Positions 705 to 18,257 of a stretch of DNA of 32,000 bases are shown piece after piece. The DNA is taken from the NCBI RefSeq assembly GCF_037902255.1, contig NZ_CP147990.1, positions 2,340,001-2,372,000 of the forward strand. The letters are read 5' to 3'. Under the pieces are notes generated by a model. It had not been told where the DNA came from. It did no database searches and saw only the letters and a program-made list of their open reading frames with translations. Position 1 is the stretch's first letter. Each line of letters opens with the position of its first letter. The translations under genes were made by a program, and so were the position numbers. Origin of the DNA: Candidatus Electrothrix sp. GW3-4. GTDB taxonomy: Bacteria; Desulfobacterota; Desulfobulbia; Desulfobulbales; Desulfobulbaceae.

Positions 705-1400
705 TTATTCCCTCCCGGAACGTCCAGAAAACAGGGCCCTCCAATGCACCGAGCGGGACTCCTTGATATCCGGCAGCAGCACAATCTTTTCCGGGAAGCC
801 ATAGCGAGCAAGCGCCTCTCTAAAAATGCCTAATGAATCCGTGACAATTCTCGGGTCATATCCTTCCCCGTACAGATTGTACACCAGGCCCAGCAGCTCC
901 ATATTTCGGTGCTTAATCGCCTCAAGACAGAGCAAGGTATGATTGATGGAGCCAAGCCGGGGTGTGGTGACCAGGATCAGGGAAAAGGAGCGGCTCTGGA
1001 GATAATCCAGTAATAGGAGCTCCCTGGTCAACGGGACCAGCAGACCACCTGCCGCTTCAATGAGCAGCTGATCCACCTGACCAACCAAGGTATCTGTGGC
1101 GCTGTCCAGTTGGGCCGGATCAATCACCGTGCCAGCCTGCTCCGCAGCGAGATGGGGTGAGGCAGGCAAAGGAAAGCAATAGGAACAGGTCAGCCCCTGC
1201 TCGTCCGGGGCAAGCCAGCCTGTACCCATAAGCTTACGATGCAAAAGGATATCTTCGGAACGATCCTTGCAACCGGTCTGCACTGGCTTTTGGGTAATCA
1301 CCACCTTGCCCTGCTCCATGAGATGGCGGGCCAGCAGACCGGTGACGACCGTTTTCCCCACATCAGTATCTATGCCACAGACAACAACGGGTTTCTTCAT
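705..1400 (-). CDS. bioD: ATP-dependent dethiobiotin synthetase
   Basis: 231 aa. The N-terminus VVVCGIDTDVGKTVVTGLLA is the BioD P-loop (GTDTxVGKT type). Length and downstream blocks (LLIEAAGGLLVPL) fit BioD. Confidence 0.9.
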   Translation of the reverse strand: MKKPVVVCGIDTDVGKTVVTGLLARHLMEQGKVVITQKPVQTGCKDRSEDILLHRKLMGTGWLAPDEQGLTCSYCFPLPASPHLAAEQAGTVIDPAQLDSATDTLVGQVDQLLIEAAGGLLVPLTRELLLLDYLQSRSFSLILVTTPRLGSINHTLLCLEAIKHRNMELLGLVYNLYGEGYDPRIVTDSLGIFREALARYGFPEKIVLLPDIKESRSVHWRALFSGRSGRE

Positions 1401-1639
1401 AGACCTTCTTCTACATCCTGTTTTTTAACTCTGCGTTACCTCTCCCTGCCCCTCTTAATAAGACAGGGCTTTTACTATAACATTTTTTCAAAATCAATGG
1501 GATGCAAAAAAAAGGGCGATGAGATAGGTTGGGTTTGCAAACTTAAGGGCACACTAAAGAGAGGAGGCCGTATAGGAAAAAATACGCCCGGTCACGCACT
1601 GACATGGGTTTGGGAAGTCGTACGCTCCCCATTGACGTG

Positions 1640-2215
1640 TTAACTGATTTTCTGAATAAGGCGCTCGTAACAAACAGGGCATATACCGTGCGATAGCTTC
1701 GGGAGCTGGTCTCGGGTAAACAGGACCATCTTCTCAACCGCTTCCTCTACATCCACCCAACTCGCATCATCCTTCCTGATACACTTACACCAACTACAAA
1801 TGGTTATAATTTTTTGGGACCGCTGAACAGAGCTCTCAAGAAAAAATACCGGCGTTCTTACTTCCTCTCGTTCAAGATAACTGGTAAACACTATTTTCCC
1901 CTTATCCTGAGGAGCCATTTCCATTTTCATGTATCTCCTTTTCTCAGGAGAATCACAGCGGAATGGAAACTCAATCGCCTTTCTGTTTACCCTCACGCTC
2001 GTTATCAACATATCATAGAGCTCCTGGCAGCTGCCACAGGATATAAAGCTGCTGATATCACGAGAGAGAACCATATCGCTCATCAGCTCTTCTCCACCAT
2101 TTTGGCTGGCAAAATAAAACCATGCTTCATCGACAGACTCTATTCTATTCGTCCTATCTATGAGATAACGGGTACATGAGTAATCAGTCATCGCTTTCCT
2201 CGAATTATAAAGCAA
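1640..2215 (-). CDS. small PAS-like sensor-domain protein with a C-terminal CxxC...CxxC motif
   Basis: 191 aa. The N-terminal ~120 aa have a PAS-like pattern (YLIDRTNRIESVDEAWFYFASQNGG...FPFRCDSPEKRRYMKMEM). The C-terminus ICSWCKCIRKDDASWVDVEE...LSHGICPVCYERL is a four-Cys module seen at the ends of many deltaproteobacterial signalling proteins. The true start may be the internal Met at MTDYS. Confidence 0.55.
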   Translation of the reverse strand: MLYNSRKAMTDYSCTRYLIDRTNRIESVDEAWFYFASQNGGEELMSDMVLSRDISSFISCGSCQELYDMLITSVRVNRKAIEFPFRCDSPEKRRYMKMEMAPQDKGKIVFTSYLEREEVRTPVFFLESSVQRSQKIITICSWCKCIRKDDASWVDVEEAVEKMVLFTRDQLPKLSHGICPVCYERLIQKIS

Positions 2216-2596
2216 GGCACGTCAATACAAATTTAAATCACGCACTCAGCAACTCGCAACTTGATACACGTCAACCTCTACTAATAAACCATGGCACCTA
2301 TCCACCATAAAATCAAACTTTTTTACGAAAAATCATAACCATAAAAATTAAAGAAACCAACCCCATCTTAGAAATCACCTTGCCTCGCAACGAAATTTAC
2401 ACAAATCGAAAATCATGCTTGCCGTCGGGAAGAGCCTGAAAAGAGGGAGAGCAGGCGTATCGAGAGAAAAAGAATGGGGGAGGAGAAAAGCACACCACTT
2501 CAGAAGAGCGGGTTGGATGACACGACGCATCGCCAGGATAATGCAAAGATAAATCATCCTGACAATGCCTCTGGCCAAATTCTTCCAAAATAGGTT

Positions 2597-3820
2597 CTAC
2601 TTGTACTCCTCGGCCCGGCTGATAATAAACTCCTTCCAGGAAGGGTCATCAAAGGCATGGGCAATGGTGAAGATGTCTTTATCGCCGCGACCGGACATAT
2701 TGATAATAATCGCCTGATCCCGAGACATGGTCGGGGCCTCCTTGATCGCCTGAACAAAGGCATGGGAGGATTCCAGGGCCGGAATGATCCCTTCCCTCTG
2801 CATGGTCAGTTTCAGGGCCTCCAGCACCTCATCATCTGTTGCGGCCTCAAAGCGGACCCGTCCCTTTTCTCCCAGATCAGCCAGGATCGGGGAAACACCT
2901 ACATAGTCCAGTCCTGCGGCAATGGAATGGGTCTCCAGCATTTGGCCATCATCATTCTGAAGAAACATGGTCTTGTACCCCTGGGCCACCCCAGGGGTCG
3001 CCCGGTCGCCCACCATCCTGGAGGCATGTTCCTCGGTATCAATGCCCTTACCACCTGCTTCCACACCGACGAGCTCCACCTCTTCATGCTCCAGGAATCC
3101 CTGAAAGATGCCCATGGCATTGGAACCGCCACCGACACAGGCATAAACCCGATCCGGCAAGCCTTCGTGCTGCTCTTGGATCTGCTTATTTGCCTCAATG
3201 CCGACGATAGATTGAAACCAGGAGACCATCTCCGGGAAAGGGGCTGGGCCGCAGGCCGTACCAAAGACATAATGGGTGCTGTCCATATTGGTGACCCAAT
3301 CCCGAAAGGCCTCGTTAATAGCGTCCTTCAGGGTTCTGGAACCGTCCTTCACTGGCACAACTGTAGCTCCCAGCTTTTCCATCCAGAAGACATTGGGCCG
3401 CTGCCGGGCCACGTCCACTTCACCCATATAAATCGTGCAGTCAAACCCGAAGCGGGCCGCCATAGTGGCGGTGGCAACCCCGTGCTGCCCTGCCCCGGTC
3501 TCCGCGATGACCCGTTTCTTGCCCATGCGCTTAACCAGCAGGCCCTGCCCCATCACGTTATTGGCCTTGTGGGCACCGGTGTGGTTCAGATCTTCCCGCT
3601 TGATATAGATCCGCGCTCCACCCAGATGATCGGAGAGATTTTGAGCAAAGGTCAAAGGCGTAGGACGGCAGGAATAATTGCTCATCAGATCGACATATTC
3701 CTGCCAGAATTTCTCATCGGCTCGTGCCGCCGCATAGGCTTCATGTAATTCCGCAAAGGTCTGATGGAGCACTTCCGGGATGAACGCACCACCCCATTGG
3801 CCGAAATATCCTTTTTTCAT
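2597..3820 (-). CDS. trpB: tryptophan synthase beta chain (TrpB1 type)
   Basis: 407 aa. It has GQWGGAFIPEVL, the PLP-lysine block REDLNHTGAHKANN, ETGAGQHGVATA and GGGSNAMG. No trpA is adjacent. Confidence 0.95.
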   Translation of the reverse strand: MKKGYFGQWGGAFIPEVLHQTFAELHEAYAAARADEKFWQEYVDLMSNYSCRPTPLTFAQNLSDHLGGARIYIKREDLNHTGAHKANNVMGQGLLVKRMGKKRVIAETGAGQHGVATATMAARFGFDCTIYMGEVDVARQRPNVFWMEKLGATVVPVKDGSRTLKDAINEAFRDWVTNMDSTHYVFGTACGPAPFPEMVSWFQSIVGIEANKQIQEQHEGLPDRVYACVGGGSNAMGIFQGFLEHEEVELVGVEAGGKGIDTEEHASRMVGDRATPGVAQGYKTMFLQNDDGQMLETHSIAAGLDYVGVSPILADLGEKGRVRFEAATDDEVLEALKLTMQREGIIPALESSHAFVQAIKEAPTMSRDQAIIINMSGRGDKDIFTIAHAFDDPSWKEFIISRAEEYK

Positions 3821-3885
3821 AATCTGTTTTTTGTTCTATCGGTTATCAATTAAAATACAATTGCCTTATATTCCCTGAAAACTAC

Positions 3886-4572
3886 CTACTTTTTCTTGAG
3901 CTGCTGGAGATATTCCACTAACGCATAGACCTGAGTGGAGGGCATATCAGTGCCACCACTCTCGCAATGACGTTCAGCCCGCTTTGCATGAGTAATAGCG
4001 CCTGAAATGTCTTTTCTTATAACGTGATAAATATTTTTTATCCCGCCTTTTTCATAGGACGGCATATATTTCTTGAGATCAGCCATAACGCTGGCGCAGA
4101 TCGAGCCCCCTTTTACACTGAAATTCTTCGTCGTATAGGTAAAATGAAGAAGGAGCCAGAACTCAAAGCAGGGTACAGAGGTAATCGCGTATATGGGACA
4201 ACCACGTTTTTTCTTTTCCCGTTCTCTTCGGACGACATCAAGAGTTTCCTGATATGTTGGATGCTGATCCTTATCAAAGACACAGTAGACCCGATCATAC
4301 GGCTCGCCCTTCTCACGTTTATCTTTTGCGTATTCTTCCAGGGCCAGTTCCACCACATTACGAGGAGAGGAACCGGCTGTATTTTCTGCAATCCTGATGT
4401 TCGCCGTATTCAGTTGCAGATCATCAATCACGGCTTTAAAATAATCAGGTTCTGTCTTCTTCCCTTCGCAGACAATCAGCACCCGGTCATAGGGAGACCT
4501 TCTCGCCCCCTTTCGTTTAAAGGAAGCAGCGCTTCGGGCTTTACGCTTATGAAACAGCTGATCGCTGCCCAT
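3886..4572 (-). CDS. RloB-like / AbiLii-like Toprim-type protein
   Basis: 228 aa. VLIVCEGKKTEPDYF is the RloB-family hallmark (Toprim Glu), followed by an acidic VYCVFDKDQH (DxD-like) block. Its ATG (4572-4570) overlaps the stop of the upstream ATPase by 1 nt (TAATG), which implies translational coupling. Confidence 0.85.
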   Translation of the reverse strand: MGSDQLFHKRKARSAASFKRKGARRSPYDRVLIVCEGKKTEPDYFKAVIDDLQLNTANIRIAENTAGSSPRNVVELALEEYAKDKREKGEPYDRVYCVFDKDQHPTYQETLDVVRREREKKKRGCPIYAITSVPCFEFWLLLHFTYTTKNFSVKGGSICASVMADLKKYMPSYEKGGIKNIYHVIRKDISGAITHAKRAERHCESGGTDMPSTQVYALVEYLQQLKKK

Positions 4573-5840
4573 TAAAACCGAACCTCACCAATATAGGGCA
4601 AGGCTCCGAATCGGCCTTGCAGATAACCTTTTTCCAGGGCTTCCTGTTTTCGGGGATGAAAATCCGACAAGGGATAAAGCTGCGTTGCCTGATCGCCATC
4701 CTTCTCGGTAAACCAAATCTGATCCCGGCGCAGAATTTTTGCGTCTAATATAGAGGTATCATGGGTGGAAAAAATCAGCTGCCCATTTTGTTCATTAGCT
4801 TCCGAATCATGAATTAAAGAGAGCAGGAAGCGGACTAGATGGGGATGAAAGCTATTATCCAATTCATCAACAACCAGTACCCGCCCATTCTTTAACACAT
4901 CCAAGAGGGGAGCCGCATAAGAAAAAAGCTTTTGAGTTCCGTCAGACTCCTCTTCCAGGGGAAGCAAGCGGTTCTCTCCTTCCGCGCCTATATTATGCTG
5001 AAAGAAAACCTTCTTCACCGGTTTACCCAGCAAGTCCTTCTGAATAGCTTTTTTCACTTCATCAGGCATATCAGAGGGAAACCGTAAGCGATCAATCTCT
5101 TTCTCTTTGATTTCGATTCCATCAACCGCAATACCTGCCCCTTGCAATAAACTCAGAATGTCTTCATAACTCTCCCCTTTCTCACAGGAGCTTGCTGTAA
5201 ATCCTGGATCAAAGCTTTCTCCGTGCCTGATGATAATCAGCTTTTGAAACCAAGTAAAGAGTGGTTTCAACTGCTCGCTGTTCAGCTGGACCGCTGTGGA
5301 CAAAAAAAGGGCATTTGCTCTGGTTGACTCCTGCCATGTTTTCTTTTGGCCGGAAAACTTAGGACCAAAATACCACTCTTCCTCTTCTGTCTCTGGATTA
5401 TACGCCCGTTCAAACCAACGCTGAGCCCGGTTGGTTGGGTACGCAAACAACCATTCATGGACCACCCGCTCCCTGGTCACGGCAAATCCGTACTGATAGC
5501 GAATATCACCCTGAAGAAAAAAGACCTCAAACTCACTTGCAGTCGTCTCGCTTCCGGGATGAAGGAGAAAGGGCTTGCTCGTGATATGTTCTCCTTCCTG
5601 GCTTTCTTTTGAAGAGAAAACCACAAATTCCTGCATAAAATCAAGAGCATCGATAAAATTACTTTTTCCCGCCCCGTTCGCCCCATAGATAACTGATGAC
5701 CTGAGCAATCTCGGAAGCCCTTCAATAGGAGAGGGAAAAGAATTTTCTTCCTGGAGGTCTTTTGTTGCCCCGGCAGCCATGCTCAAGGTTTGGGATTCCA
5801 AAAAGGAGCGGTAATTTTTGACACTGAATTCGATAAGCAT
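4572..5840 (-). CDS. ABC/SMC-type AAA ATPase (AAA_21/RloA, AbiLi-like)
   Basis: Walker A YGANGAGKSNFIDAL, Walker B/D-loop VLVVDELDNSFHP and H-loop LIFSTHD. I place the start at the internal Met (MLIEFSVKNYRSF, ATG at 5840-5838). Family members begin with this beta-strand, and the 35-aa extension in the track ORF (to 5945) is hydrophobic junk. Confidence 0.85.
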   Translation of the reverse strand: MLIEFSVKNYRSFLESQTLSMAAGATKDLQEENSFPSPIEGLPRLLRSSVIYGANGAGKSNFIDALDFMQEFVVFSSKESQEGEHITSKPFLLHPGSETTASEFEVFFLQGDIRYQYGFAVTRERVVHEWLFAYPTNRAQRWFERAYNPETEEEEWYFGPKFSGQKKTWQESTRANALFLSTAVQLNSEQLKPLFTWFQKLIIIRHGESFDPGFTASSCEKGESYEDILSLLQGAGIAVDGIEIKEKEIDRLRFPSDMPDEVKKAIQKDLLGKPVKKVFFQHNIGAEGENRLLPLEEESDGTQKLFSYAAPLLDVLKNGRVLVVDELDNSFHPHLVRFLLSLIHDSEANEQNGQLIFSTHDTSILDAKILRRDQIWFTEKDGDQATQLYPLSDFHPRKQEALEKGYLQGRFGALPYIGEVRF

Positions 5841-6129
5841 GAAATGTACCTGGATTTTCGGTCTACTCAGGTAAAGCAGACAAACTAAGACGGCTTCAAA
5901 TAAACTTTCAACGTAAAAAATGCACAAAAAGTTCTTTTTTTGCAACTAAAATCATTCCCGACTATCTTTTATCAGATTGTTTCGTTCTGAATCAAGCAGC
6001 CAAATCTGACTTGCATCATTTCAAGTGTTCTTCGTTGATACCGGTATGTTTTTTCTTTTGTTTTTCCCTTTTTTCTGTTCCTATTGCCTTGACACCTTAA
6101 CCGTAAAAGTATTTACAGGATATTGAGCC

Positions 6130-9100
6130 TTGAACAGAAAAATACTCTTTCTTGCTGCCGCCCCACGGGATGATAAGAGACTGCAACTTTCTACCGAACT
6201 TCGAGAAATAAAGGAAGCACTACAGCGTTCCCCAAGAAGAGATGATTTCAATTTGATAGATACAGTGGCAGTGCGTGTCCAAGACTTGCGACGGGCCTTA
6301 CTGGCTCATGAGCCTCAAATTGTTCATTTCAGCGGTCATGGAACAACTACCGATTGCATATTGGAAAACCAAACAGGCAACACCCAACCTGTTGACAATA
6401 AAGCAATCGCTACTCTCTTCGGTTTATTCGCTAATTGTATTCAGTTCGTTATCTTGAACTCTTGTAATTCTGAAGCACTTGCTGAAAAAATTGCTGGGGC
6501 TATTCCCTACGTGGTCGGCATGAACGATGAAATCGATGATGAATCTGCAATACACTTCTCTACAGGATTTTACGATGCTTTAGGTGCAGGAAAAGATTAT
6601 GAGACCGCCTTTGAATTTGCCTGTAACGCGATTGAACTCTCCAATCTACCTGGAAAGGATATCCCTGTCCTAAAAAAAGGTAATCCAGAGGCTATTGTAA
6701 AATCGCATCCTCCTACAGGTCCTCAAAATACAGTTCCTGATCAGCAACAAATCGCACCTCAATTCACAGTCCTTCTCAGTGAACATATATCCAGCGAACT
6801 GGATGAGGTTACTCAGCTGTACTATGCCGGAAAGTTCAAAACAGCACTGGAGCAACTTCTCACCATAAAACAGGATCAGATACGCTGGAGTGCCTTAGAA
6901 AATGACAAAAAAGCTCAGGTGCTACGTATTGAGGCCAATCTGCTCCTGAGCTACGACAGCAATATTGACCTAGCTCAGCAGAGATCCGATGAAGCTGACA
7001 GGGTTTCACCTCCCCCACCCGGTTCGTCGGCCTTGCAGGCATTAATAACTTGGTCCAAATCTGGGCCTCAACAGGCTCTCCCATACCTGGAATCACCAGT
7101 CGCAGCTGAAGGCAAATTGCTCAAGGCGTGGCTACTGTCTGCTCTTGAACGCTTTGAGGAGGCCGACAACCTACTTGAGGGATTACCAGAACATGATTCT
7201 GCTATCCAAAGCGATGTATTCCGGCTACGAGCTATCATAAAATTATATGACCGGGAATTGGACAGCGCACTACTCTGTATTCAACGGGCAAGAAAACGCA
7301 CACCTGACAGCAACAAAGTAATTGAGACAGAGGGGATGCTGCTGTATTACAGCGCACTTTCTCCGGCAGTTGTTCCACAACAGCTTCAAGGCATACCTGA
7401 CCCTGTAGACTGGTTGGTTGTTCGCCATGACCTGCAAAGCCTTGAAAGGTTAAATCAAGCGGCTGAAAACTTCTGTACCCTTCTGGACACCTGCGAAACA
7501 AATCAAGAGCAGCAACGTAGCTGGGAGGTCTGGCGGCTGGCCTGTTTATCTTGCCATAAAGATCGCCTACCTGAAGCAGAAACCTATTGCCGCCATCTTC
7601 TGGATAAAGAGCCAACCCATGCCTACGCAATCGCTTGGGGCATTGTTCGACGCTTCCTCAATCAACAACATATCACCAAATGCATTTTTGCCCTTGAGGA
7701 ACAATTAACCACAGAAAAACCGAAAATCGGTGCCATTCTGAGTTTATGTGCGCTGTATAGAGAGGAAGAGCAAAATGATAAGGCATGTAGCTTACTGGAA
7801 ACTCATCAGGATATTTTTATACAGCAGAATCAGCTCCCGCTCTGGCAGGCATGGAAGGCACAAGCGTCCTGTGTTTCAACTGATACAGAGAGTGAAGTGT
7901 CAACAGAAGCGGACTTGAGCATCGGCGCAAAGCTTATATATCTGAAACAAGCTGCCACGATTAACAACGATTATAAAGAACTCTTTCGATACGCTGAGCA
8001 GTCTTTACAGGGAGAACTCTCACCGGACATCTTTTTAAATATATGCGTGTTTTTGAGTTATCAGAACGAGTGGAATTTTATTGCCGATCACGCCCTTGAA
8101 CTTGTCGAAAAAGGAGGAACGAGCGGAGCTGTAGAGCTGGCCGCCCAAGCCTGTTACGAAACAGATCGCTATAAAGAGTTACTGACAATTCTGACAGAAT
8201 ATACTTTTCTGTTTTCCGAAGGAAAATTGCCTCCGGGCTTGGAAAGGGCAAAAATCATGGCCCAACAAAGAGTCGGAGGTTCCGAACTGCCTAAGGCTGT
8301 TTTGGCGGCAGAAGCACTCGCTCAACAGACTGGTGAACTGATTGATCTTTTAAGGCTTGCTGACCTGCAATTATACCAAGGAAATATTGTTCAAGCTACG
8401 CACATAATATTACAGGCTGGTCAACAGCATAAGCTACCACCAAAACAAATTATTCATTATTCGCAGGTTATTGCCACAGAAAACAAAGAGGCTGCGGTTA
8501 AGCTTTTGACAACTTGCAAGCCCGAGGAACTCCCGAGCGAACTGCTTCCCGCCGTTTTCATGTTGAGCAATACGCTTGGGGTAGAGGATAAACTGGAACA
8601 ATTTCTGAGCCGATTTCATGAAGAATTGGCAGCCGGAATGATACCGGGAGTGCAAAAATTTACAGGAACAGACAAGCTGATTGAGCTGATTCAATCTTCA
8701 CAGCAACAGGCGCAACAAAGACAGCAATTATACGAACAAGGAAAAGTACCGATTCATCTCATTGCTGATCAGACTGCGCACTCACCTCTTCTCTCTCTTT
8801 ATCATGAATACCTGTCATATATGAAGCAAGATGGCGAGCTTGCCGGTTCGTCTTCTTTGTTCGTCCGGCATGGAGGAAGGGCAATAATCAGAGACTTCTC
8901 TGCACAGCCATCGGAATGGAATCTCCATCTGGACATCACAGCTCTGTTGCTCTCTACACATCTTGGCATATTGGACAAGGTAGAGCAATGTTTCGGCACC
9001 CTGCATCTTCCAGCTCCCTTGATGCCGCTGTTGCAAAAAATGTTGCAACAAGCCGAACCTGCCCAGGCTGGCAGGGTGAGGGCCATGCAAAAAATCCTGC

Positions 9101-12100
9101 AAGACGTTGAGGACGGAAGAGTAAAATCGGCCCCGGAAACATCCTCACTCAAAGAACAGCTTCTCTCTCGTAACGCTCTGTTTCTGGACTGGACAGACCC
9201 GTTAAGTGATGATGACCAGTTACCCGATGAACTGCGCATCAACTGCCGCTACTTGACGGAGACTCTTTTTCACTTAGGCAGGATATCACAAGTCACCTTT
9301 GAGGATGCTGTCAACAAGTTAGGTCAAGAAGGATTACGATGTGTCTGCTATGCTGATATTGCTGAAGGACAAGATATCATTTGCCAGCATGGCACAGCGG
9401 TATTACTGGCGGAAGCAGGAATTTGGGAAACTTTCAGAAATAACTGCCATGTTCTGTTGCAGCAAGAGGATATAGTTCATCTCAGAAGTGAAATTCAACA
9501 GGCCGAGAACTCCAGAAAAAATATCAAATGGCTCAAAACGATTCGAGATCGACTGTGCTATGGGATTGAAAACGGTATTTACCAGACCATGTCTCTTCCT
9601 TCCGAAAAACAGAACAAAGACATGCATCGCCTTATAAATACCGGAGAACTTAACACGGCCTGCCTGCTTTCACTGCTGTCTATCCCTCAAGAAAAACAAG
9701 CTCAAGTTTGGTGCGATGACCGTTTTGTCAGTGCGTACCCCCGCCTCAACGGCCATCCTACAATGACGATTTTCGATATCCTGAAGGCCCTGAAAGAGTA
9801 TGATTACCTAACGGAGAAAGAATATTACGCTACCCTACAGACTATTCGCAAAAGCAACATTCGTTTCATTCCCTTGGAAGCAGCTGAGGTTATCTACTGG
9901 CTCAGAAATGCACCGATTGCAAATGGGATGGTCAAGGAAACACCTGAGCTCTCCGTGCTTCGACGATACAGTTCCATCTGTCTTGGCGACACTTCCGGGT
10001 TGCAACCGCCAACAGAGGCGCCTGCGTCCAATCCGAATGGAGAACTCCTTTTTATCGTCCAACACAACATCGCAGCGATCAACGCGATAATGACAGCTTG
10101 GGCCTCTGATGATGAACATACCAACAATGTCATAGCTTGGTCTGACTGGATTCTGCACAATCTATATTCAGAATACTATCAACCGATACCTGCTTGGATA
10201 CAGACAAATAGTGATTTTCAGCGATTTCTTAGTTTTTGGTATGACGCCTTTTTGGTAAACGCCATCCCTCTTTCTCAGAAAAAAACGAATGATGAACCCT
10301 CTCGCCGCTCCCGCTATTTAGCATGGATCTCTGAACGCTTGCTGGATAGACGAATTGAGACTGATGAGGAACTACGCACAAAAGTCGCAACAAAGTTCTT
10401 TTCATCAATAAAGCATTTTCTCCAGCTCAACGATACGGAAGCTGAAACAGGTTCGTTGGGGAAAGATCACGAAATCCATCGCGCGACACAGAGCCTTCTG
10501 CGTCAATTTGTTCGCGAATGTCCAGAGCTTATTCGTGAACAACTGTATACATCACAGGAAATGCGGGAACTGCTTGGATTGGTCGAGAACGACAAAAATG
10601 CCTTAATTCCTCTTGGTGGCTATTATTTTTATATCAAAAACTTCAACAAGGCTATCAGCAAAGCAACGAAAAAGAAGAAAGGAAAAATATATACCTGGAA
10701 CAAGGAACACCGATTCTCTGTTACACTTGATCATGTCTCAGAAAATACTAACACTCCCATCTTTCTGTTCAAGAATGCAGACCGACAACTTTCATTTCAT
10801 CTGAACAGCTCTGAAAACGGTGTCCTCTTACCAACAGCATCAGAGAGAATGCAGTTTCTCAAACGACAAGCAGGATTATTTGATCTTCCCAAAAAACAGC
10901 AGGCCAAAGAGTTTGCCAGGATTGAAGAACAGCGTACTCCTTGGGATCGTATTACGGTAATAAGTGAGCTGCTTCAAGATAGCAATACCTACTTCTATCA
11001 ACAGCTCGCTGAATCAATCAGGAAAAGGAAAAGCTTTAAGATACCAGAGTTGCTCCCACCCTCTGGCAATTCTATGCTACGCTTTCTCAGACTGGAAGAT
11101 GAGCAGGATATTCAGGTGGAACTGTGTCAAGCAGCCCAAAGGATGATAAAAGATAGAGGGATCAAAGAAACCCTACTACGATTTTCCACATTACCCTGCC
11201 CTTTGCCCTCACCAGTAGAGCACCATCTTTCCGGGCTTTCCACGAAGCAACGAGACAAGCTCTTTGCAGAATGGCAGACAGAAATTTCTTCTCCGCTATC
11301 GCTCTTCCACTACCTCAGGGCTGTCAGCCAATATCAAAGTCGGTATCAGAAAAAGACATCAAAGCTCCTTGAGGATTTTCTGATTGATCCAGATAGAGGC
11401 CGATTAGTTCAGTTTTTTCTCCTGCTTGTCAATTTAATGAAGAATATGTTCAGCACTTGGCATGAAACCAGAGAACTACGGCCTGCAACTCGGTTGGCTC
11501 TTGCTTGGTCACATGCAGATCGTATTCTGGCGGTTTTCATTTCTATTGGTACGCCCGATGAGAGCATGCTAAAACGTTTCAAGGGAAATATACCACCCTG
11601 TTCAATATCCGATTTTATAGATGAATCGAACAATGGCGTTGATATTGCCGATCCGAAAGTCTTGCCTCATGATTTCTTTATACTCCAAGGTCTTTCTTTT
11701 GCACTTGGCGAGACCAGCAGCAAACTCCTGACAGAAAAGGCCTGCGAAGAGATCACGAAACTCTGTACTCTTGAGAAGATTGAAAACATGGACACGCTTC
11801 TACCCAATCCTCTTTTACTCCGCGACACATTATTGTCCACGAACAAGCTTAATGCTTTCCTTCAACATAATTTTAAAAGAATTTATCAAGATATAGACAA
11901 ACCTGAACTTACTCAATGGTGCAGCCGAGATTCCCAGAAAAAAATCGTGACGGATGCAATACGCAACGAAAAATTACCTTTCCTAACAGCATGGTTGTCT
12001 GTTGAATCGGTGCTTCCTTACCACAAAGTACATAACGATTTGAAAGACGAGCTTGTGAGTTGGCTGACAAAAATCAGTCTATCTGAATTATGGAAATCAG

Positions 12101-12477
12101 ACGAAAAGCTTGCCCAACGAGTCACATTGCAGCTTGCCTTGTTTGTGCAACATCTCAAGTCAACTGAACTGAAAGAAAAAGTTGAAAACGAATTAATTGC
12201 TTTAGCCAGGATTCTTCACGAAAGCAACTCAGCGTCAAAAGAAGAGCCAGTTAAGGAAGCTTTGCTTGATGCTGTTCTCAGAGTAGCATTGTTCGATGGC
12301 ACAGAATTAGGTTTTGCCGAGAATACGGCCCGTCTTTTTAAAGACATTGCAGAGGTAAATCCTCATCTCGACAAAATGATGCGAGTATCTTACATCCCCA
12401 GCCTTGCTGAGGAGCTTCCAATGGAGCCATCCAGAAAGTTGTGGTCACTTATAATCAAGTTGAGATCAGCAGAATAA
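6130..12477 (+). CDS. 2115-aa giant protein: N-terminal caspase/CHAT-like His-Cys module, then TPR-like helical repeats, then a long unassigned helical region
   Basis: One uninterrupted 6.3-kb ORF with a TTG start 9-10 nt after AGGA. The N-terminus KILFLAAAPRDD...IVHFSGHG (H70, nt 6337-6339)...VILNSCNSE (C112, nt 6463-6465)...VVGMNDEIDDESAIHFSTGFYDALGAG matches the clan CD peptidase dyad order. No GxxxxGK[ST] was found anywhere by eye. The next in-frame Met is residue 131, so the TTG start is needed to keep the conserved N-terminus. Confidence 0.8.
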   Translation: MNRKILFLAAAPRDDKRLQLSTELREIKEALQRSPRRDDFNLIDTVAVRVQDLRRALLAHEPQIVHFSGHGTTTDCILENQTGNTQPVDNKAIATLFGLFANCIQFVILNSCNSEALAEKIAGAIPYVVGMNDEIDDESAIHFSTGFYDALGAGKDYETAFEFACNAIELSNLPGKDIPVLKKGNPEAIVKSHPPTGPQNTVPDQQQIAPQFTVLLSEHISSELDEVTQLYYAGKFKTALEQLLTIKQDQIRWSALENDKKAQVLRIEANLLLSYDSNIDLAQQRSDEADRVSPPPPGSSALQALITWSKSGPQQALPYLESPVAAEGKLLKAWLLSALERFEEADNLLEGLPEHDSAIQSDVFRLRAIIKLYDRELDSALLCIQRARKRTPDSNKVIETEGMLLYYSALSPAVVPQQLQGIPDPVDWLVVRHDLQSLERLNQAAENFCTLLDTCETNQEQQRSWEVWRLACLSCHKDRLPEAETYCRHLLDKEPTHAYAIAWGIVRRFLNQQHITKCIFALEEQLTTEKPKIGAILSLCALYREEEQNDKACSLLETHQDIFIQQNQLPLWQAWKAQASCVSTDTESEVSTEADLSIGAKLIYLKQAATINNDYKELFRYAEQSLQGELSPDIFLNICVFLSYQNEWNFIADHALELVEKGGTSGAVELAAQACYETDRYKELLTILTEYTFLFSEGKLPPGLERAKIMAQQRVGGSELPKAVLAAEALAQQTGELIDLLRLADLQLYQGNIVQATHIILQAGQQHKLPPKQIIHYSQVIATENKEAAVKLLTTCKPEELPSELLPAVFMLSNTLGVEDKLEQFLSRFHEELAAGMIPGVQKFTGTDKLIELIQSSQQQAQQRQQLYEQGKVPIHLIADQTAHSPLLSLYHEYLSYMKQDGELAGSSSLFVRHGGRAIIRDFSAQPSEWNLHLDITALLLSTHLGILDKVEQCFGTLHLPAPLMPLLQKMLQQAEPAQAGRVRAMQKILQDVEDGRVKSAPETSSLKEQLLSRNALFLDWTDPLSDDDQLPDELRINCRYLTETLFHLGRISQVTFEDAVNKLGQEGLRCVCYADIAEGQDIICQHGTAVLLAEAGIWETFRNNCHVLLQQEDIVHLRSEIQQAENSRKNIKWLKTIRDRLCYGIENGIYQTMSLPSEKQNKDMHRLINTGELNTACLLSLLSIPQEKQAQVWCDDRFVSAYPRLNGHPTMTIFDILKALKEYDYLTEKEYYATLQTIRKSNIRFIPLEAAEVIYWLRNAPIANGMVKETPELSVLRRYSSICLGDTSGLQPPTEAPASNPNGELLFIVQHNIAAINAIMTAWASDDEHTNNVIAWSDWILHNLYSEYYQPIPAWIQTNSDFQRFLSFWYDAFLVNAIPLSQKKTNDEPSRRSRYLAWISERLLDRRIETDEELRTKVATKFFSSIKHFLQLNDTEAETGSLGKDHEIHRATQSLLRQFVRECPELIREQLYTSQEMRELLGLVENDKNALIPLGGYYFYIKNFNKAISKATKKKKGKIYTWNKEHRFSVTLDHVSENTNTPIFLFKNADRQLSFHLNSSENGVLLPTASERMQFLKRQAGLFDLPKKQQAKEFARIEEQRTPWDRITVISELLQDSNTYFYQQLAESIRKRKSFKIPELLPPSGNSMLRFLRLEDEQDIQVELCQAAQRMIKDRGIKETLLRFSTLPCPLPSPVEHHLSGLSTKQRDKLFAEWQTEISSPLSLFHYLRAVSQYQSRYQKKTSKLLEDFLIDPDRGRLVQFFLLLVNLMKNMFSTWHETRELRPATRLALAWSHADRILAVFISIGTPDESMLKRFKGNIPPCSISDFIDESNNGVDIADPKVLPHDFFILQGLSFALGETSSKLLTEKACEEITKLCTLEKIENMDTLLPNPLLLRDTLLSTNKLNAFLQHNFKRIYQDIDKPELTQWCSRDSQKKIVTDAIRNEKLPFLTAWLSVESVLPYHKVHNDLKDELVSWLTKISLSELWKSDEKLAQRVTLQLALFVQHLKSTELKEKVENELIALARILHESNSASKEEPVKEALLDAVLRVALFDGTELGFAENTARLFKDIAEVNPHLDKMMRVSYIPSLAEELPMEPSRKLWSLIIKLRSAE

Positions 12478-12494
12478 AGCCCCCTTAAAAAAAT

Positions 12495-13559
12495 CTACAA
12501 CACCGACCAAGGCTTAGGTAAAAAAATATGCCGATAGAGCCCCAAGGCATAACGATCTGTCATACCAGCAATAAAATCACAGACCTGGCGATGGAGTTGT
12601 TTCCTCGCCTTATCGCCCCGTACCAGAGGACGCTCAATAAAAGGATGCTCAGTGTTATCGGAAAACTCATATTCGAGGAAAAAGCCGTACAACTCGTTGA
12701 TAATATTCTGGGCCTTCTCAAATTCGTTATGCACACGCTCATTGCGGTACACCTTATTATAGAGAAAACTGCGCAGATCTTTGATAACCTCCTGCATCAT
12801 CGGGCTCAGGCGAAGGCGCCCATCATTACACCGCAGGGTTTCTGTAACCAGATCACGGACCATGGTATCAATGCGCATAGAGGGCCTGTTGCCCACCACC
12901 TCACGCAGGTGCTTGGGGAGATCTGTCTCCCGAATCATCCCAGCCCGCAGGGCATCATCCATATCATGATTCAGATAGGCAATAATATCTGCCACCCGCA
13001 CCGCCTGTCCCTCCAAAGTCGCAGGCAGGTCCTTGCTGTCATCCGGCAGAATATCCCGATAGCCCTTGGAATGCTTGACGATCCCGTTCCGGACCTCCCA
13101 GGTCAAATTCAGCCCCTTTCCATTCGCCTCGATAAAATCAACCACTCGTAGGCTCTGGATATAATGTTTAAACCCTCCTGGATGCAATTTATTCAGGCTG
13201 TACTCCCCGGCATGGCCAAAGGGCGTATGTCCCAGGTCATGACCAAGGGCGATGGCCTCAGTCAGGTATTCATTGAGTTGCAGGCAGGTGGCAATAGTCC
13301 GGGCGATCTGAGAGACCTCCAAAACATGGGTGAGCCGGGTCCGATAATGATCCCCGGTCGGAGAAAGGAAGACCTGGGTCTTATGTTTCAGGCGACGAAA
13401 GGTCTTGGAGTGGATAATACGATCCCGATCTCTTTGAAAAGCTGTACGCAGATCACAATCAGGCTCTTGACGCAGACGCCCTCGTGATTGCGTGCTGAGG
13501 TAGGCAGAGGGAGAGAGTGTTACTTTTTCGTGTTCTTCCTGTTGTTGACGTATATTCAC
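12495..13559 (-). CDS. dgt: dGTP triphosphohydrolase-like HD-domain protein (short, type 2)
   Basis: 354 aa. It has [24 protein letters not shown], the HD motif [15 protein letters not shown]...[14 protein letters not shown], and the C-terminal [11 protein letters not shown] block typical of this family. Confidence 0.9.
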
Positions 13560-13821
13560 GGCAGACCTTGGCTGGATATTTTATAAAACGTGCCGGAGTT
13601 GTAGCAATACCTTTATGCCAGGACAAGTGTTTTTTTGCCTCAGAAAGTCCATTCTCCATCAACAGGTTGACGTTGCCCATTCCCTATGGTAATGACCTGT
13701 ATTTTACTTCTTGCTGTATTCAACAGATAGAGCTGTAACCCCTCCTCATATAGGAGAAAATTGATCCATCCAATACTTTTTCATTTGATTTTCCGGTTCA
13801 GCCGGTAAAAGGAGTCCCTCC

Positions 13822-15132
13822 ATGCGAACGGATATTCTGCACATTGGTGCAGGTGAACTAACCTATGAAATTCGCAATATTGTCAATGTCGGCAACCAGT
13901 TGCAAGACCTAGGTCTCAATGTAAACTGGGAAAACATCGGTGATCCCGTGGCAAAGGGAGAGCAGATCCCGGCGTGGATGAAGGATATTATTGCCGCCGC
14001 AGCGCAGCAGGATGCAACCTACGGCTATTCACCGACCAAGGGGATGCCAGCGACCCGGCAGTTTCTCGCAGAACAAACCAATGCGCTTGGTGGAGTACAG
14101 ATCAGCCCGGAAGATATTATCTTTTTTAACGGACTGGGTGATGCCATTTCGAAGATTTTCGGTTTTCTTCGCCGCACGGCAAGAGTTCTGGTCCCGACGC
14201 CCAGCTATACCACCCACTCCTCTGCTGAGGCGGCCCACGCTGGCGACCGGCCCCTGACCTATATGCTTGATCCGCAGAATAATTGGTACCCGGACCTGGC
14301 AGATATTGAAAACCATATCCGCTATAACCCGGCCGTGGCAGGTATCCTGATCATCAATCCGGATAACCCAACCGGTGCGGTTTATCCCGAGGAAATCTTA
14401 CGAAGCATCGTTGCCTTGGCGGAGAAATACGACCTCTTCATCGTCTGTGACGAGGTCTATCAGAACATGGTCTATAACGGCACCAAGGCTGTCCCCATGG
14501 CTACCCTGATCGGTGACAAGGTGCCTGCCATCTGCATGCGCGGGGTCTCCAAGGAAATGCCGTGGCCTGGCGGACGCTGTGGCTGGATTGAGGTCTATAA
14601 CGGTCACCATGACCCCATGTTTGAAAAGTACATCAACTCCATCCTCAATGCCAAGATGATGGAGGTCTGTTCCACCACCCTGCCCCAGGTGGTCCTGCCC
14701 CAGGTGATTAAGCATCCTGAATATCAGACCTACCTGGACGAACGGGTACAGCGCTATGAAAAGCACTCCAATATCGCCTATGATATCCTCAAAGATGTTG
14801 ATGGGATTGTAGTGAATAAAACCAACGGGGCCTTTTACATGAGTGTGGCCTTTGCAGACGGTGTACTCAATAATCAACAGACCCTGCCCATTGAAATTGA
14901 GCAGGTTCGAAGTACCGTGGAGAAGATGGTCAGCGGGCCGGATGTTTCCCTGGATAAACGTTTTGTCTATTACCTGCTGGGTTCTTCAGGGGTCTGCGTG
15001 GTGCCGCTTTCCTCCTTTGCCACCCAGATGCAGGGCTTCCGCATTACCCTGCTGGAGCGGGACGAAGAGATCTTCACCCAGATCTTCCATACCATTGCAT
15101 CATCTATCAAGGAGTATCTGGCTTCGGCCTGA
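13822..15132 (+). CDS. class I/II PLP-dependent aminotransferase (alanine/aspartate aminotransferase-like)
   Basis: 436 aa. It has YGYSPTKGMPATRQF, ILIINPDNPTGAVY and the PLP-lysine region GVSKEMPWPGGRCGW. RBS AAAGGAG lies upstream of the ATG. Confidence 0.85.
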   Translation: MRTDILHIGAGELTYEIRNIVNVGNQLQDLGLNVNWENIGDPVAKGEQIPAWMKDIIAAAAQQDATYGYSPTKGMPATRQFLAEQTNALGGVQISPEDIIFFNGLGDAISKIFGFLRRTARVLVPTPSYTTHSSAEAAHAGDRPLTYMLDPQNNWYPDLADIENHIRYNPAVAGILIINPDNPTGAVYPEEILRSIVALAEKYDLFIVCDEVYQNMVYNGTKAVPMATLIGDKVPAICMRGVSKEMPWPGGRCGWIEVYNGHHDPMFEKYINSILNAKMMEVCSTTLPQVVLPQVIKHPEYQTYLDERVQRYEKHSNIAYDILKDVDGIVVNKTNGAFYMSVAFADGVLNNQQTLPIEIEQVRSTVEKMVSGPDVSLDKRFVYYLLGSSGVCVVPLSSFATQMQGFRITLLERDEEIFTQIFHTIASSIKEYLASA

Positions 15133-15158
15133 TGTCCCAAGCAGACAAAACAGCAAAT

Positions 15159-15183
15159 CAGCTCAGAGTGCTCCCCTGAGCTG
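15159..15183. terminator. hairpin between the convergent aminotransferase and mscS-family genes
   Basis: Perfect 8-bp inverted repeat CAGCTCAG (15159-15166) / CTGAGCTG (15176-15183) with a 9-nt loop. There is a T-rich stretch only on the minus-strand side and no clean U-tract. Confidence 0.3.
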
Positions 15184-15248
15184 GTCCTGGCCAATTCCTG
15201 TGTGAAAAAAACAAGCTATCAAGCAGGATAAAAGACAGCGTCACCTAT

Positions 15249-16172
15249 TCACCCTCCTACTTCTTCGATCTTTCTGCCGAGGCGGTCTATACTCGTGGTG
15301 CGCCAGGCAACTTCTTGTTGCAGACGTTGAACTTCCTCTTCGGCATCAGCTTCTTTGATCCGGTCCTCGATGATCTTGATCTGTTCCCCCATAAGTTTAT
15401 ATCTGGAATGCATTTTATCGATGGATTCCGCCTCATCGGCCTTGTCAAAGACCACGGATTCCATAGCAGGATGATCTGGGGCATCCGGTCCCTGACTATC
15501 AGGGATGATGTGTTTCTTTACTGAAAGCGCCCGGGTGTTCATAAAGGAGGGAGACACAATCTCTATCCCGGCACTATGCAGAGCATCAAGGATATTTTCA
15601 CGTAATTTTGATCGAGTAGTAAATGGTTTTTTGACACCCTTTAGTATTCCGGCCACCCGGTATTCTACAGAGAAGTCGCCGAGATTTGCAACGTGAACAA
15701 AGGGCTCCTGGAGCGGAACCTCCTCTGCTGCCTTGGTCAGCAAGGTCTTCACCTGGGCATGGGGCACGTCATACCCCAGGGAGACTGTAGCAGAGACAAC
15801 AGTCTTTGTTTTGCGCACCACCTTACAGGGATTGGTGATCAGGTAGAGGTTAGGTAGGGTGGTCAGGTCACTGTCTTTGGTCTGGATTTCCGTGTGGAGC
15901 AGGCCCATCTCCGTGACCCGGCCAAAATGTTCTCCTACACTGAGGAAATCACCGGGGCGAAAATTGGAAACCAGGGAGAGCATCATCCCGGCCATAAAGT
16001 TGCTGATAAAGGTGGTTGAGGAGATGGCAATGGCTGCGGTCAGGATGATACCGAAAAGAGTGAGAGAATTATCAACGCCCTTTTCAGGATCAAACGCCAG
16101 GAGAAGGAGCAGGACTGCCAAGAGAAGGGCCACTGCTGCCAGGTAAAAGAGTTTGCGTTTTCTGTCGTTCAT
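15249..16172 (-). CDS. MscS-family mechanosensitive channel
   Basis: 307 aa. N-terminal TM helices are followed by the MscS beta-domain signature FRPGDFLSVGEHFGRVTEMGLLHTEIQTKDSDLTTLPN, with a C-terminal coiled-coil tail. Confidence 0.85.
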   Translation of the reverse strand: MNDRKRKLFYLAAVALLLAVLLLLLAFDPEKGVDNSLTLFGIILTAAIAISSTTFISNFMAGMMLSLVSNFRPGDFLSVGEHFGRVTEMGLLHTEIQTKDSDLTTLPNLYLITNPCKVVRKTKTVVSATVSLGYDVPHAQVKTLLTKAAEEVPLQEPFVHVANLGDFSVEYRVAGILKGVKKPFTTRSKLRENILDALHSAGIEIVSPSFMNTRALSVKKHIIPDSQGPDAPDHPAMESVVFDKADEAESIDKMHSRYKLMGEQIKIIEDRIKEADAEEEVQRLQQEVAWRTTSIDRLGRKIEEVGG

Positions 16173-16766
16173 AGTCTCTTCGCTGCGGAGGAATGAGGGA
16201 GCTGGAAGATCTGATGGTATTGTACGCCATCGGGCCTGCGTAAGTAAAGCAATCCGTCGAGCAGGGCCAAGCGCCCCTGCAGCTGGACAGCATTACGGAT
16301 ATTGATCAGGCCGATATACTCGCGCGCAAGGGAGATTGGTGGGAGATGCTGGATATACGGCGCTGCTGGCTGGAGTGATGGGGGTGATTGCCGGAAAAGG
16401 GGTAGCGCGGGCAGGCAAGATGGCCGAGGAAGGCTCCTCGGCGGTTCCCCCCTGCTCCTCAGTCATTTTGCCACGCTTCTCACTCGTTTTTCTATGCCCT
16501 TTACTCAATTTTCTTGGCGAGGAATGGGTTTACTCTACTGCTTTTCGATTTTTCCTTGAAGCGAAATAAAATTTCCGGGCTGAAGCGGGAGCAGGACAGG
16601 GAGTATTGCCTGACTTCATGCCAGAATAATGAGCTTGCCGGGATTTATCCCGTGTTTTCTTGCTGTGTTGAAGGGGAGGGAAGGCTTTTTTTGTCTGTGG
16701 GATGATAACCAGCAGAGATCCCCCTAGATCAGGGCATAACCACTGAAAACAACAAGGAGTCGACCT

Positions 16767-17738
16767 TTACTCCAGTCCCAGCACCGCTGCTGCCTGTGCA
16801 GCAATCCGCTCATAATCGTCCCTGGCAAACCAATTCAGCTCCTGATTTTTCCTGAACCAGGTCATCTGCCGTTTGGCATACCTCCGGGTATCCCGGACCA
16901 GATATTCCAACATCTCTTCCTGATTCCATTCCCCGGAGAGCAGGTTATTGACATGCTTATAGCCGATGGCCTGCATAGAAGGCAGCTCTGGAGTATAACC
17001 CATACTGAGCAAGCGCACCACCTCCTCAACCAGGCCCTGCTCCAGCATGATCTGCGAGCGCTGGGCGATCCGCTGATAGAGCTGCTCCCGCTCACAGTCC
17101 AGGGCGACCTGAAAGACCCGGGTGAAGCGCCCTTTCTGATCTTGTTCCTGCTGTTGCTGCTCGGCAATGAGTTCGGTCCAGGTGCGACCGGAGCTCAGAT
17201 AGATCTCCAGTCCCCGTAATAGCCGTTGAGTATCATTGGCATGCACCCGCTCCCCTGCTACTGGATCAATCCGGCAAAGCTCGGCATGGAGCGCCTCCCG
17301 TCCTTCCTGCTCAAGACGTTCGCGCAGCTGCGCTCGAACCCCCTCATCCGTGGGCAGGACATCAAACAGCCCCTCAAACAAGGCCTTGAGATAAAGCCCG
17401 GTACCGCCGGTCAGCAGCACAGTACGATTACGGGAGGCAATCTCTGCAATGGCTGCTAAGGCATCATGAACAAAGCGGGCTGCATCGTACTGATCATCCG
17501 GGTCAATGATGTCGATGAGGTGATGGGGGACCAGGGCCTGTTCTTCCTGGCTTGGCTTGGCCGTGCCGATGTCCATATGGCGATAGACCTGCATGGAGTC
17601 CATGCTGACGATCTCGCAGGCAAAGCGCTGAACCAGTTGGAGAGAGAGGGCGGTTTTACCCACAGCAGTGGGACCGACCAGGACAATGATCGGGCAATTA
17701 ATAGTTGTTGAAGACGGGGTTATTGGAGCGTGTTTCAC
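16767..17738 (-). CDS. miaA: tRNA dimethylallyltransferase
   Basis: 323 aa. It has the P-loop IIVLVGPTAVGKTALS and the blocks SMDSMQVYRHMDIGTAKP, VPHHLIDIIDP and RRYAKRQMTWFR. The GTG start overlaps the upstream stop (GTGA). Confidence 0.95.
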   Translation of the reverse strand: MKHAPITPSSTTINCPIIVLVGPTAVGKTALSLQLVQRFACEIVSMDSMQVYRHMDIGTAKPSQEEQALVPHHLIDIIDPDDQYDAARFVHDALAAIAEIASRNRTVLLTGGTGLYLKALFEGLFDVLPTDEGVRAQLRERLEQEGREALHAELCRIDPVAGERVHANDTQRLLRGLEIYLSSGRTWTELIAEQQQQEQDQKGRFTRVFQVALDCEREQLYQRIAQRSQIMLEQGLVEEVVRLLSMGYTPELPSMQAIGYKHVNNLLSGEWNQEEMLEYLVRDTRRYAKRQMTWFRKNQELNWFARDDYERIAAQAAAVLGLE

Positions 17739-18229: not shown

Positions 18230-18257
18230 CAGCCCCTCTGGTCAATGCCCGTTGATG

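Follow-up and report, generated by a model that had tools for sequence, protein, structure and literature searches.

In the genome of Candidatus (Ca.) Electrothrix sp. GW3-4, the segment between trpB and dgt (positions 3855 to 12495 of the 32,000-nucleotide stretch of contig NZ_CP147990.1 that was analysed, hereafter the window) is best read as a small, composite island of defence genes, comprising two independent modules, an AbiL-type gene pair and a giant gene for a relative of the TPR-GreA/B-C-PIN (TGP) conflict proteins, in a variable spot downstream of dgt. We give this reading a probability of roughly 80%. Domain identities, intact catalytic motifs, the occurrence of the modules apart from each other, and the hotspot were observed directly, and both modules belong to already-known kinds of predicted antiphage system. 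We would draw the AbiL module at 3886 to 5952 and the second module, made up of the single gene for the TGP-like protein, at 5956 to 12494. The three open reading frames (ORFs) of the segment and the two noncoding elements between them, with their predicted identities, are as follows.

3886 to 4572, minus strand: AbiLii, an RloB-family OLD-type Toprim nuclease of 228 amino acids (aa)
4572 to 5840, minus strand: AbiLi, an AAA_21/AAA_15-class ABC-type ATPase of 422 aa, counted from an ATG start
5893 to 5952, minus strand: conserved, partly palindromic noncoding element upstream of AbiLi, part of the AbiL module
5956 to 6129, plus strand: upstream region peculiar to the giant-gene module
6130 to 12477, plus strand: the giant gene, with a TTG start, encoding a single-polypeptide TGP-like conflict protein of 2115 aa

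A first-pass annotation of this DNA had proposed that the minus-strand pair is an ABC-type ATPase with an RloB-like partner, as in AbiL, and the profile search that it called for bore this out. AbiLii matched Pfam RloB over the full profile (E value of 6.8e-41) and PADLOC AbiLii (2.1e-31), and AbiLi matched Pfam AAA_21 (2.8e-44) and PADLOC AbiLi (1.6e-101). The PADLOC model for AriA, the ATPase of the PARIS system, matched AbiLi far more weakly (3.6e-45), AbiLii had no match among the AriB and DUF4435 models of Pfam and PADLOC, and no NCBIfam model matched AbiLii. On the basis of these matches, the pair is a predicted AbiL-type operon of an ABC ATPase and an RloB/Toprim protein. The stop codon TAA of AbiLi and the start codon ATG of AbiLii overlap by one base (TAATG), the minus-strand junction reading TTTTAATGGGC. 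AbiLi carries a Walker A motif, GANGAGKSN (G53 to N61, with Lys59), a signature-like SDGTQ at residue 299, a Walker B DELD at residue 325, and an H-loop His360 within STHD at residue 358. AbiLii carries LIVCEGKKTEPDYF at residue 32 and VFDKD at residue 98, and its Toprim catalytic residues are Glu36 in CEGKKTE and Asp100 and Asp102 in VFDKD.

AbiL is an abortive-infection system of Lactococcus lactis (Deng, Liu, and Dunn 1999, as cited in PMC10440598). Like it, the window pair is a two-gene operon in which an ABC-type ATPase gene precedes an RloB/Toprim gene, with stop and start codons overlapping; AbiL is the best PADLOC match for both proteins, and the Walker A and B, signature, and Toprim E...DxD motifs are intact. 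The lactococcal system is plasmid-borne, whereas the window pair is chromosomal, belongs to a distant phylum (Thermodesulfobacteriota), and is known from sequence alone. AbiL has been grouped with defence systems that combine an AAA_15/21 ABC ATPase and a nuclease of Toprim type, beside OLD, Gabija, and PARIS (PMC11464382), and RloB has been described as a relative of the OLD-type Toprim, a toxin neutralised by its AAA ATPase as antitoxin (PMC10440598). In the literature we found no resolved account of the mechanism of AbiL itself. PARIS (AriA/AriB) likewise pairs an AAA_15/21-class ABC ATPase with a separate Toprim nuclease, and AbiL has been placed in the same ATPase tree (PMC11464382); however, AriB is a DUF4435 protein while the window nuclease is RloB (PF13707), and the hexamer-and-release mechanism and the tRNA cleavage belong to PARIS, to which AbiL is likened by analogy. 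By analogy with PARIS and with ATPase-neutralised Toprim toxins, AbiLi would most likely hold AbiLii inactive in a complex. On sensing a phage cue, AbiLi would release or activate AbiLii, nucleic acid would be cut, and the infection would be aborted.

The independence of the two modules is seen in related genomes. Other Electrothrix genomes, reached through their dgt homologues, showed the following arrangements.

Ca. Electrothrix sp. AU1_5 (L015): 884 bp from dgt to trpB, coding for a PIN_3 toxin with its HicB/RHH antitoxin; homology to the window ends at 3854 and begins again at 12496
L018, a metagenomic relative (92% identity in dgt): dgt, a Fer4 (ferredoxin-like) protein of 413 aa, AbiLi, and AbiLii, the giant-gene region being replaced
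Ca. E. aarhusensis (L049): leuA-AhpC-HHH-miaA-aminotransferase-dgt-AbiLi-trpB, with 194 bp from dgt to AbiLi, no giant gene, and AbiLii reduced to a 40-codon stub
Two other relatives (L012 and L020): dgt, then fabA-lpxA-lpxI
Complete genome YB6 (L016 and L050): dgt and a decayed AbiL pair at unrelated sites

The first-pass annotation had taken the segment for one 8.6-kb insertion and had raised the possibility of a three-gene system, to be checked by alignment to relatives and by co-occurrence. The alignment did place trpB and dgt only 884 bp apart in AU1_5, and it set the variable segment at 3855 to 12495, slightly wider than the 3886 to 12477 first noted. The single insertion had to be abandoned, because E. 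aarhusensis and L018 both have AbiL at this dgt-trpB site but lack the giant gene there; the AbiL genes of L018 align to window positions 3878 to 5954 at 76%. The position downstream of dgt is one at which Electrothrix genomes swap cargo, at least four cargoes being present in four genomes, and the giant gene is a rarer addition there than AbiL.

Relatives of the giant gene were surveyed at 38 loci (9 from genomes, 27 from metagenomes, and two long contigs; 554 kb). A tblastn search of these loci found neither AbiLi nor AbiLii beside any of them (0 of 38; best E value of 0.35), a result that speaks against the three-gene system. Their annotated neighbours were unrelated housekeeping genes, and an all-against-all comparison of flanking ORFs at 30 nonredundant loci yielded no neighbour common to more than two loci. 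Since AbiL occurs at the dgt site of relatives without the giant gene, and the giant-gene relatives occur without AbiL, the segment contains two separable modules that happen to be neighbours in a variable spot.

Two of the surveyed loci, which are unrelated to each other, do have a neighbour in common. At L053 (Leptolyngbya boryana IU 594 plasmid p1, positions 1695 to 11837) and L022 (positions 915 to 9456), the TGP-like giant gene sits immediately downstream of a set of multiubiquitin, ThiF-E1, and DUF6527 genes, the only neighbour common to any two of the 30 loci. We would take this set to be a putative ubiquitin-like defence system, and the arrangement looks like defence-island co-location.

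The divergent spacer between AbiLi and the giant gene, put at about 290 bp and A/T-rich in the first-pass annotation, measured 289 bp (5841 to 6129) with a GC content of 35.3%. Two parts of it differ in their distribution. The element at 5893 to 5952 reads roughly AACTTTAAAG.TTATTAATGCACAAAAAATGCATTTTTTGCAAC, includes an imperfect palindrome, and lies about 55 to 110 nucleotides upstream of AbiLi; six Electrothrix loci can be aligned over it, with 26 columns invariant. Besides the window these are L018, L048, L049, L050, and L051, and four of them (L018, L049, L050, and L051) are without the giant gene. The element belongs to the AbiL module alone and is probably its promoter or operator. The adjoining region, 5956 to 6129, aligns only with L048, a contig carrying an orthologous giant gene, and not with the AbiL-only loci; it contains a conserved TTGACA box at about 6089 to 6094, presumably a promoter element. 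A scan of 3700 to 6300 for sigma-70 promoters and terminators gave counts not above those of shuffled sequence and called nothing in the divergent spacer, the element at 5893 to 5952 included.

We consider it very improbable that all three genes belong to a single integrated system, under joint control of the shared 289-bp region and acting together. The divergent arrangement and the short shared spacer are what such a system might show, and the contig L048 (84% nucleotide identity in the giant gene, with the same TTG start) begins inside the AbiL upstream element, so that AbiL and the giant gene are probably adjacent in a second Electrothrix lineage also. Adjacency in at least two lineages leaves a little room for coupling, but it fits shared ancestry and is by itself no indication of coupling. 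Weighing more heavily are the occurrence of AbiL without the giant gene, both at this locus (L049 and L018) and at other sites (L050 and L051), the 38 giant-gene loci that have neither AbiL nor a conserved neighbour, the restriction of the conserved upstream element to AbiL, and the published description of TGP genes as mostly standalone (PMC8195603).

The composition of the segment sets it apart from its flanks. The ORFs, the TAATG overlap, the quoted motifs, the divergent spacer, and the 17-nucleotide gap between the giant gene stop (ending at 12477) and the convergent dgt ORF (starting at 12495) were all found in the sequence as first annotated, and the borders were, as had been reported, without integrase, tRNA, or flanking direct repeat. 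The GC content of 3855 to 12495 is 44.7%, versus 50.6% in the remainder of the window, and to the right of the segment every 8.6-kb stretch has at least 47.6%. GC at third codon positions (GC3) is 0.47 in each of the AbiL genes and 0.43 in the giant gene, versus 0.645 in trpB, 0.555 in dgt, and 0.63 in the aminotransferase gene. The composition is therefore not uniform across the borders, the outcome that the earlier suggestion of horizontal acquisition had called for; its hand estimate of about 60% for trpB was too high (measured, 55.6%). Further low-GC patches lie at 1640 to 2215, 18917 to 19510, and 22127 to 22765, so low GC is not peculiar to the segment. Homologues of AbiLi are common across Electrothrix (77 to 96% identity) and occur at about 70% identity across other Desulfobulbaceae. 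Given this spread in genus and family, the AbiL pair is a long-standing, lineage-resident accessory module, not a recent import from far away.

A related possibility, which we regard as unlikely though worth keeping in view, is that the segment was not horizontally acquired at all. In that case AbiL would be the ancestral content of dgt-trpB, perhaps along with the giant gene, loss or replacement having followed in some lineages, and the low GC would reflect weak codon selection in rarely expressed genes. In three Electrothrix genomes AbiL does occupy this site, its homologues are common in the genus and family, states of decay are seen (AbiLii deleted in E. aarhusensis, both genes truncated in YB6), and the borders carry no integrase, tRNA, or repeat. 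Yet the AbiL genes are only 75 to 76% identical at the nucleotide level where the flanks, in the same genome pairs, are 85 to 87% identical; the site has four different contents in four genomes, with the giant gene in only one; and GC3 lies 0.1 to 0.2 under that of the neighbours. A variable spot occupied by exchangeable modules remains the reading that we prefer.

In relatives the AbiL system is in decay. In E. aarhusensis (L049, GCA_942491045.2; positions 10001 to 11391) AbiLi is full length and AbiLii has been lost but for the stub, window positions 3845 to 4528 being without a counterpart, and in YB6 (L050, positions 9790 to 11505) AbiLi has a frameshift and AbiLii is cut down to 146 aa. 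That the nuclease was lost first in E. aarhusensis fits a toxin/antitoxin-like relationship of AbiLii and AbiLi, since a toxin can be lost safely and an antitoxin cannot. In L051 (GCA_026645415.1; positions 8569 to 9560), a CHAT-domain fragment of 84 aa lies directly downstream of the AbiL pair, together with a toxin-antitoxin pair of the DUF6364/PIN_3 kind. The fragment was considered as a link between AbiL and CHAT proteins and rejected; it is unrelated to the CHAT head of the giant protein (E value of 0.9) and so provides no evidence for such a link.

The giant gene had been left unidentified in the first-pass annotation and can now be assigned as a CHAT-headed relative of the published TGP family. 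Its parts, all on the plus strand, are as follows.

6130 to 6729: N-terminal CHAT (caspase-fold) protease domain, residues ~1 to 200
6772 to 8649: TPR-like alpha-helical repeat region, residues ~215 to 840, a presumed sensor or scaffold
8677 to 8880: HTH_upstream_double_PIN domain, residues 850 to 917
8917 to 9354: first PIN-like domain, residues ~930 to 1075, with an invariant beta1 Asp935 (LHLDITA)
9373 to 9879: second PIN-like domain, residues ~1082 to 1250, with an invariant WCDDRF (Asp1196, Asp1197, Arg1198)
10612 to 10770: probable homologue of the permuted GreA/B C-terminal domain, residues ~1495 to 1547, a presumed RNA-polymerase-binding module
10807 to 12474: conserved C-terminal region of ~555 aa, residues ~1560 to 2115, with invariant R1654, R1684, P1689, and W1793

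The CHAT domain matched Pfam at 2.4e-8 (34 bits, versus a cutoff of 24) and the PADLOC chat model at 3.1e-14. Its catalytic dyad is intact, with His70 in HFSGHG and Cys112 in LNSC, and protease activity is predicted; among about 100 aligned CHAT segments covering the column, the histidine is present in 95 and the cysteine in 97. The evidence for TPR repeats is at the family level: the window protein itself gave only subthreshold TPR/ANAPC3 matches, several homologues matched TPR families, and a profile of the giant family had a single match among PDB sequences, the TPR protein PilF (2.6e-5). At that level, the TGP arrangement of a TPR region between effector head and core is found here too. 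The HTH domain matched PF24407 (5.4e-7; 30.3 bits, versus a cutoff of 27).

The PIN domains were compared with the published TGP alignment, of which 28 rows were used (supplementary PIN.aln), the hidden Markov model (HMM) being built without one long-branch row, MBE7557282.1. An HMM from this alignment matched the window protein at 2e-12 and covered the DDR motif, which the WCDDRF of the second PIN-like domain matches. When the long-branch row was added, residues 931 to 1010, with LHLDITA and the beta1 Asp935, were matched as well. The marks of a TGP-type PIN, the beta1 aspartate and the DDR motif, are both present in the giant protein, on separate copies. The first PIN-like domain also gave a partial match to PF20698 (0.0042), and its predicted model shows beta-alpha units, with a predicted local distance difference test (pLDDT) score of 85. 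Other members of the giant family have two complete tandem PIN copies. MBE7557282.1 belongs to the giant-gene family (blastp E value of 2.9e-14), and Kaur et al. 2021 had therefore already included part of the long branch in their alignment.

At residues 1495 to 1547 the predicted model has a beta-rich fold. The C-terminal ~555 residues, in which H1795 and D1838 are nearly invariant across the family, matched no Pfam family and may be an unrecognised functional module. AlphaFold models of parts of the protein were of fair quality (pLDDT of 79 and 85). No NCBIfam model matched the giant protein, and hhalign of family subalignments against a profile of three VapC-like PIN toxins from the locus sequences gave no signal, the profile being too thin to inform.

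The family to which the giant protein belongs is large. Full-length homologues of about 1930 to 2160 aa cover 80 to 92% of it at 20 to 28% identity, Electrothrix orthologues are 82 to 92% identical, and a search with residues 840 to 1600 returned at least 1060 cluster representatives at an E value of 1e-3 or lower, mostly of about 2000 to 2150 aa. Among 23 full-length members, PF24407 was present in 20, PF20698 (the PIN of the TPR-GreAB-C-PIN system) in 9, and PF24388 (Permuted_GreAB-C) in 6. The N-terminal heads on this core vary: across 31 loci we found an Mrr-like restriction endonuclease in 9, PNP_UDP_1 in 4, CHAT in 2, caspase C14 in 1, and HNH in 1, and one further homologue had a trypsin head. 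The CHAT head of the window protein recurs, in a set of 159 family proteins, only in the Electrothrix orthologue, and the second CHAT-headed locus among the 31 is from Microcoleus. The closest relatives of the head (45 to 54% identity) are domains at the ends of NACHT/WD40/TIR/LRR-Roc proteins in filamentous cyanobacteria such as Nostoc, Calothrix, and Halotia, and the head seems to move between filamentous bacteria that are multicellular. The member on the Leptolyngbya boryana plasmid p1 (WP_190711077.1, 2213 aa) is annotated in RefSeq as a caspase family protein, so a caspase-headed architecture, though rare, was already present in the databases. Phage genomes yielded nothing related to the giant core.

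The presence of PF24388 and PF20698 in the homologues pointed to the TGP system of Kaur, Burroughs, Iyer, and Aravind 2021 (PMC8195603); the 2020 paper by Kaur et al. is without a description of it. TGP proteins have a constant, fast-evolving core of TPR, GreA/B-C, and PIN joined to one of 13 alternative N-terminal effector domains, and it was predicted that GreA/B-C docks on a hijacked RNA polymerase, that PIN cleaves the transcript, and that the N-terminal effector is a backup (PMC8195603). One TGP protein, Agp of the Bab/Agp system of Escherichia coli ECOR25, has been shown to give protection from phage T5 in concert with an amyloid-signalling partner (bioRxiv 10.1101/2024.11.07.622273). 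Like TGP proteins, the giant protein joins an exchangeable N-terminal effector to a constant, fast-evolving core, and it shares with them TPR repeats, a PIN with the DDR motif, a standalone gene, and a patchy distribution; a GreA/B-C-type module, matched in homologues, is probable. By these likenesses the giant gene is a predicted relative of the TGP proteins, within a branch of about 2,000 aa marked by PF24407. Unlike Bab/Agp, it has neither the amyloid motif nor the Bell-domain partner, and the TGP table of PMC8195603 lists no caspase or CHAT head. Its actual family is that of the PF24407 / PF24388 proteins (for example, Rubrobacter tropicus GBA63_18505 and WP_190711077.1), with which it is homologous end to end at 20 to 31% identity, although its compact CHAT head is rare there, being confined to the Electrothrix orthologue and the one Microcoleus locus. 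A literature search on double-PIN or permuted GreAB-C proteins found no paper on this long branch. It is catalogued by Pfam, large, and experimentally uncharacterised.

Besides the probable adjacency of the modules in a second lineage, several observations count against the account given here, most of them touching the second module. The canonical TGP protein has 1113 to 1363 aa (about 1100 to 1400) in the order TPR, GreAB-C, and a single C-terminal PIN, and the giant protein departs from that architecture, with 2115 aa in the order CHAT, TPR, HTH, PIN, PIN, permuted GreAB-C-like, and a tail of ~555 aa; in size and in having PIN before GreAB-C it thus differs from the proteins for which the RNA polymerase model was proposed. 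The GreA/B-C-like region of the window protein has no direct Pfam match and was mapped by alignment from a PF24388 match in the homologue P0004 (2.7e-10; 40 bits). The two PIN copies are complementary in their acidic residues, the first having Asp935 but LDW in place of DDR and the second having DDR without the beta1 Asp; the pair points to a pseudo-dimer whose active site would be either single or composite. Foldseek searches of PDB returned only helical-repeat noise for a 761-residue model (residues 840 to 1600; best E value of 0.11) and nothing significant for a 381-residue double-PIN model, the PIN proteins Nmd4 (7qhy/8rd3) and PAE2754 (1v8o/1v8p) appearing at E values of 1.0 to 3.6. Finally, every activity, trigger, and target of both modules is inferred from sequence.

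With these points in mind, a mechanism for the giant protein can be proposed only tentatively. The TPR array and the GreA/B-C-like module would dock on a phage-hijacked RNA polymerase, the tandem PIN domains would cut the transcript, and the CHAT head, as backup effector, would cleave host targets and kill or arrest the cell. Death or arrest of one cell in the cable filament would protect its sister cells. The full version of this proposal, a single-chain guard of RNA polymerase in which the GreA/B-C-like module and the PIN pseudo-dimer sense and cut transcripts and CHAT then executes the cell for the good of an electrically coupled filament, is in our estimation doubtful; if true, it would make the long double-PIN branch a distinct, uncharacterised class of immune sensor. 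Cross-talk between the giant protein and the adjacent AbiL pair, given their adjacency in at least two Electrothrix lineages, is a weaker extra possibility.

The nearest relatives of the CHAT head allow a quite different function to be imagined. HetF-type CHAT proteins of filamentous cyanobacteria act in heterocyst development. The closest CHAT domains to that of the giant protein come from such cyanobacteria, and the host is itself a multicellular filament, so the giant gene might encode a developmental or regulatory CHAT protease with a TPR scaffold, HetF-like, that serves differentiation or filament maintenance and not immunity. We judge this highly unlikely. The relatives carry nuclease, nucleosidase, and trypsin heads on the same core, which fits a slot for immune effectors and not a fixed role; the giant gene is missing at the dgt site of sister Electrothrix genomes; its GC3 is low; and it adjoins other defence genes both here and on the Leptolyngbya plasmid. 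A predicted immune effector protein of TGP type is the better description.

To our knowledge, the phages and the immunity of cable bacteria are almost unstudied. The value of the present results lies mostly in annotation, and current understanding is not overturned by them; on the question of whether the segment holds one system or two, the answer is two. The most useful outputs are the dgt hotspot and the caspase-headed candidate in a multicellular bacterium. With at least four cargoes in four genomes, the dgt site is a useful place to seek further defence genes of cable bacteria, and a caspase-headed copy whose host is an obligately multicellular filament makes a reasonable test case for the idea of effector-mediated altruistic cell death.

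The genes on either side of the segment lie outside the defence modules.

2597 to 3820, minus strand: trpB, left flank (TIGR00263, 604 bits; 87% nucleotide identity to E. aarhusensis)
12495 to 13559, minus strand: dgt, dGTP triphosphohydrolase of the housekeeping type, right flank (NF002327, 515 bits, above the cutoff)

We considered whether dgt might be an antiphage dGTPase belonging to the island and rejected this, the corresponding model scoring 201 bits against a cutoff of 400 while the housekeeping equivalog passed; its synteny with the aminotransferase gene in all relatives likewise rejects dgt as an island member. In E. aarhusensis (L049), a trpB-orf169-bioD-plsY-aminotransferase block adjoining the dgt/AbiL site is tandemly duplicated (positions 11580 to 16921 and 17244 to 21269), and the proteins of its two trpB copies are 95 to 96% identical to the window TrpB.

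In comparison with close relatives, the window has three more small insertions of its own. These are an MscS-like channel gene between the aminotransferase gene and miaA (15134 to 16769), a low-GC (0.39) gene for a DUF2127 membrane protein between AhpC and leuA (18742 to 19970), and, between bioD and trpB (1382 to 2602), a 191-aa ORF without a family match that is absent from AU1_5 and present in E. aarhusensis. The lowest-GC stretch of the window is 22001 to 23665 (0.36 at 22001 to 22500); within it, a 212-aa ORF at 22127 to 22765, with a GC3 of 0.35 and no Pfam match, may be another acquired gene.

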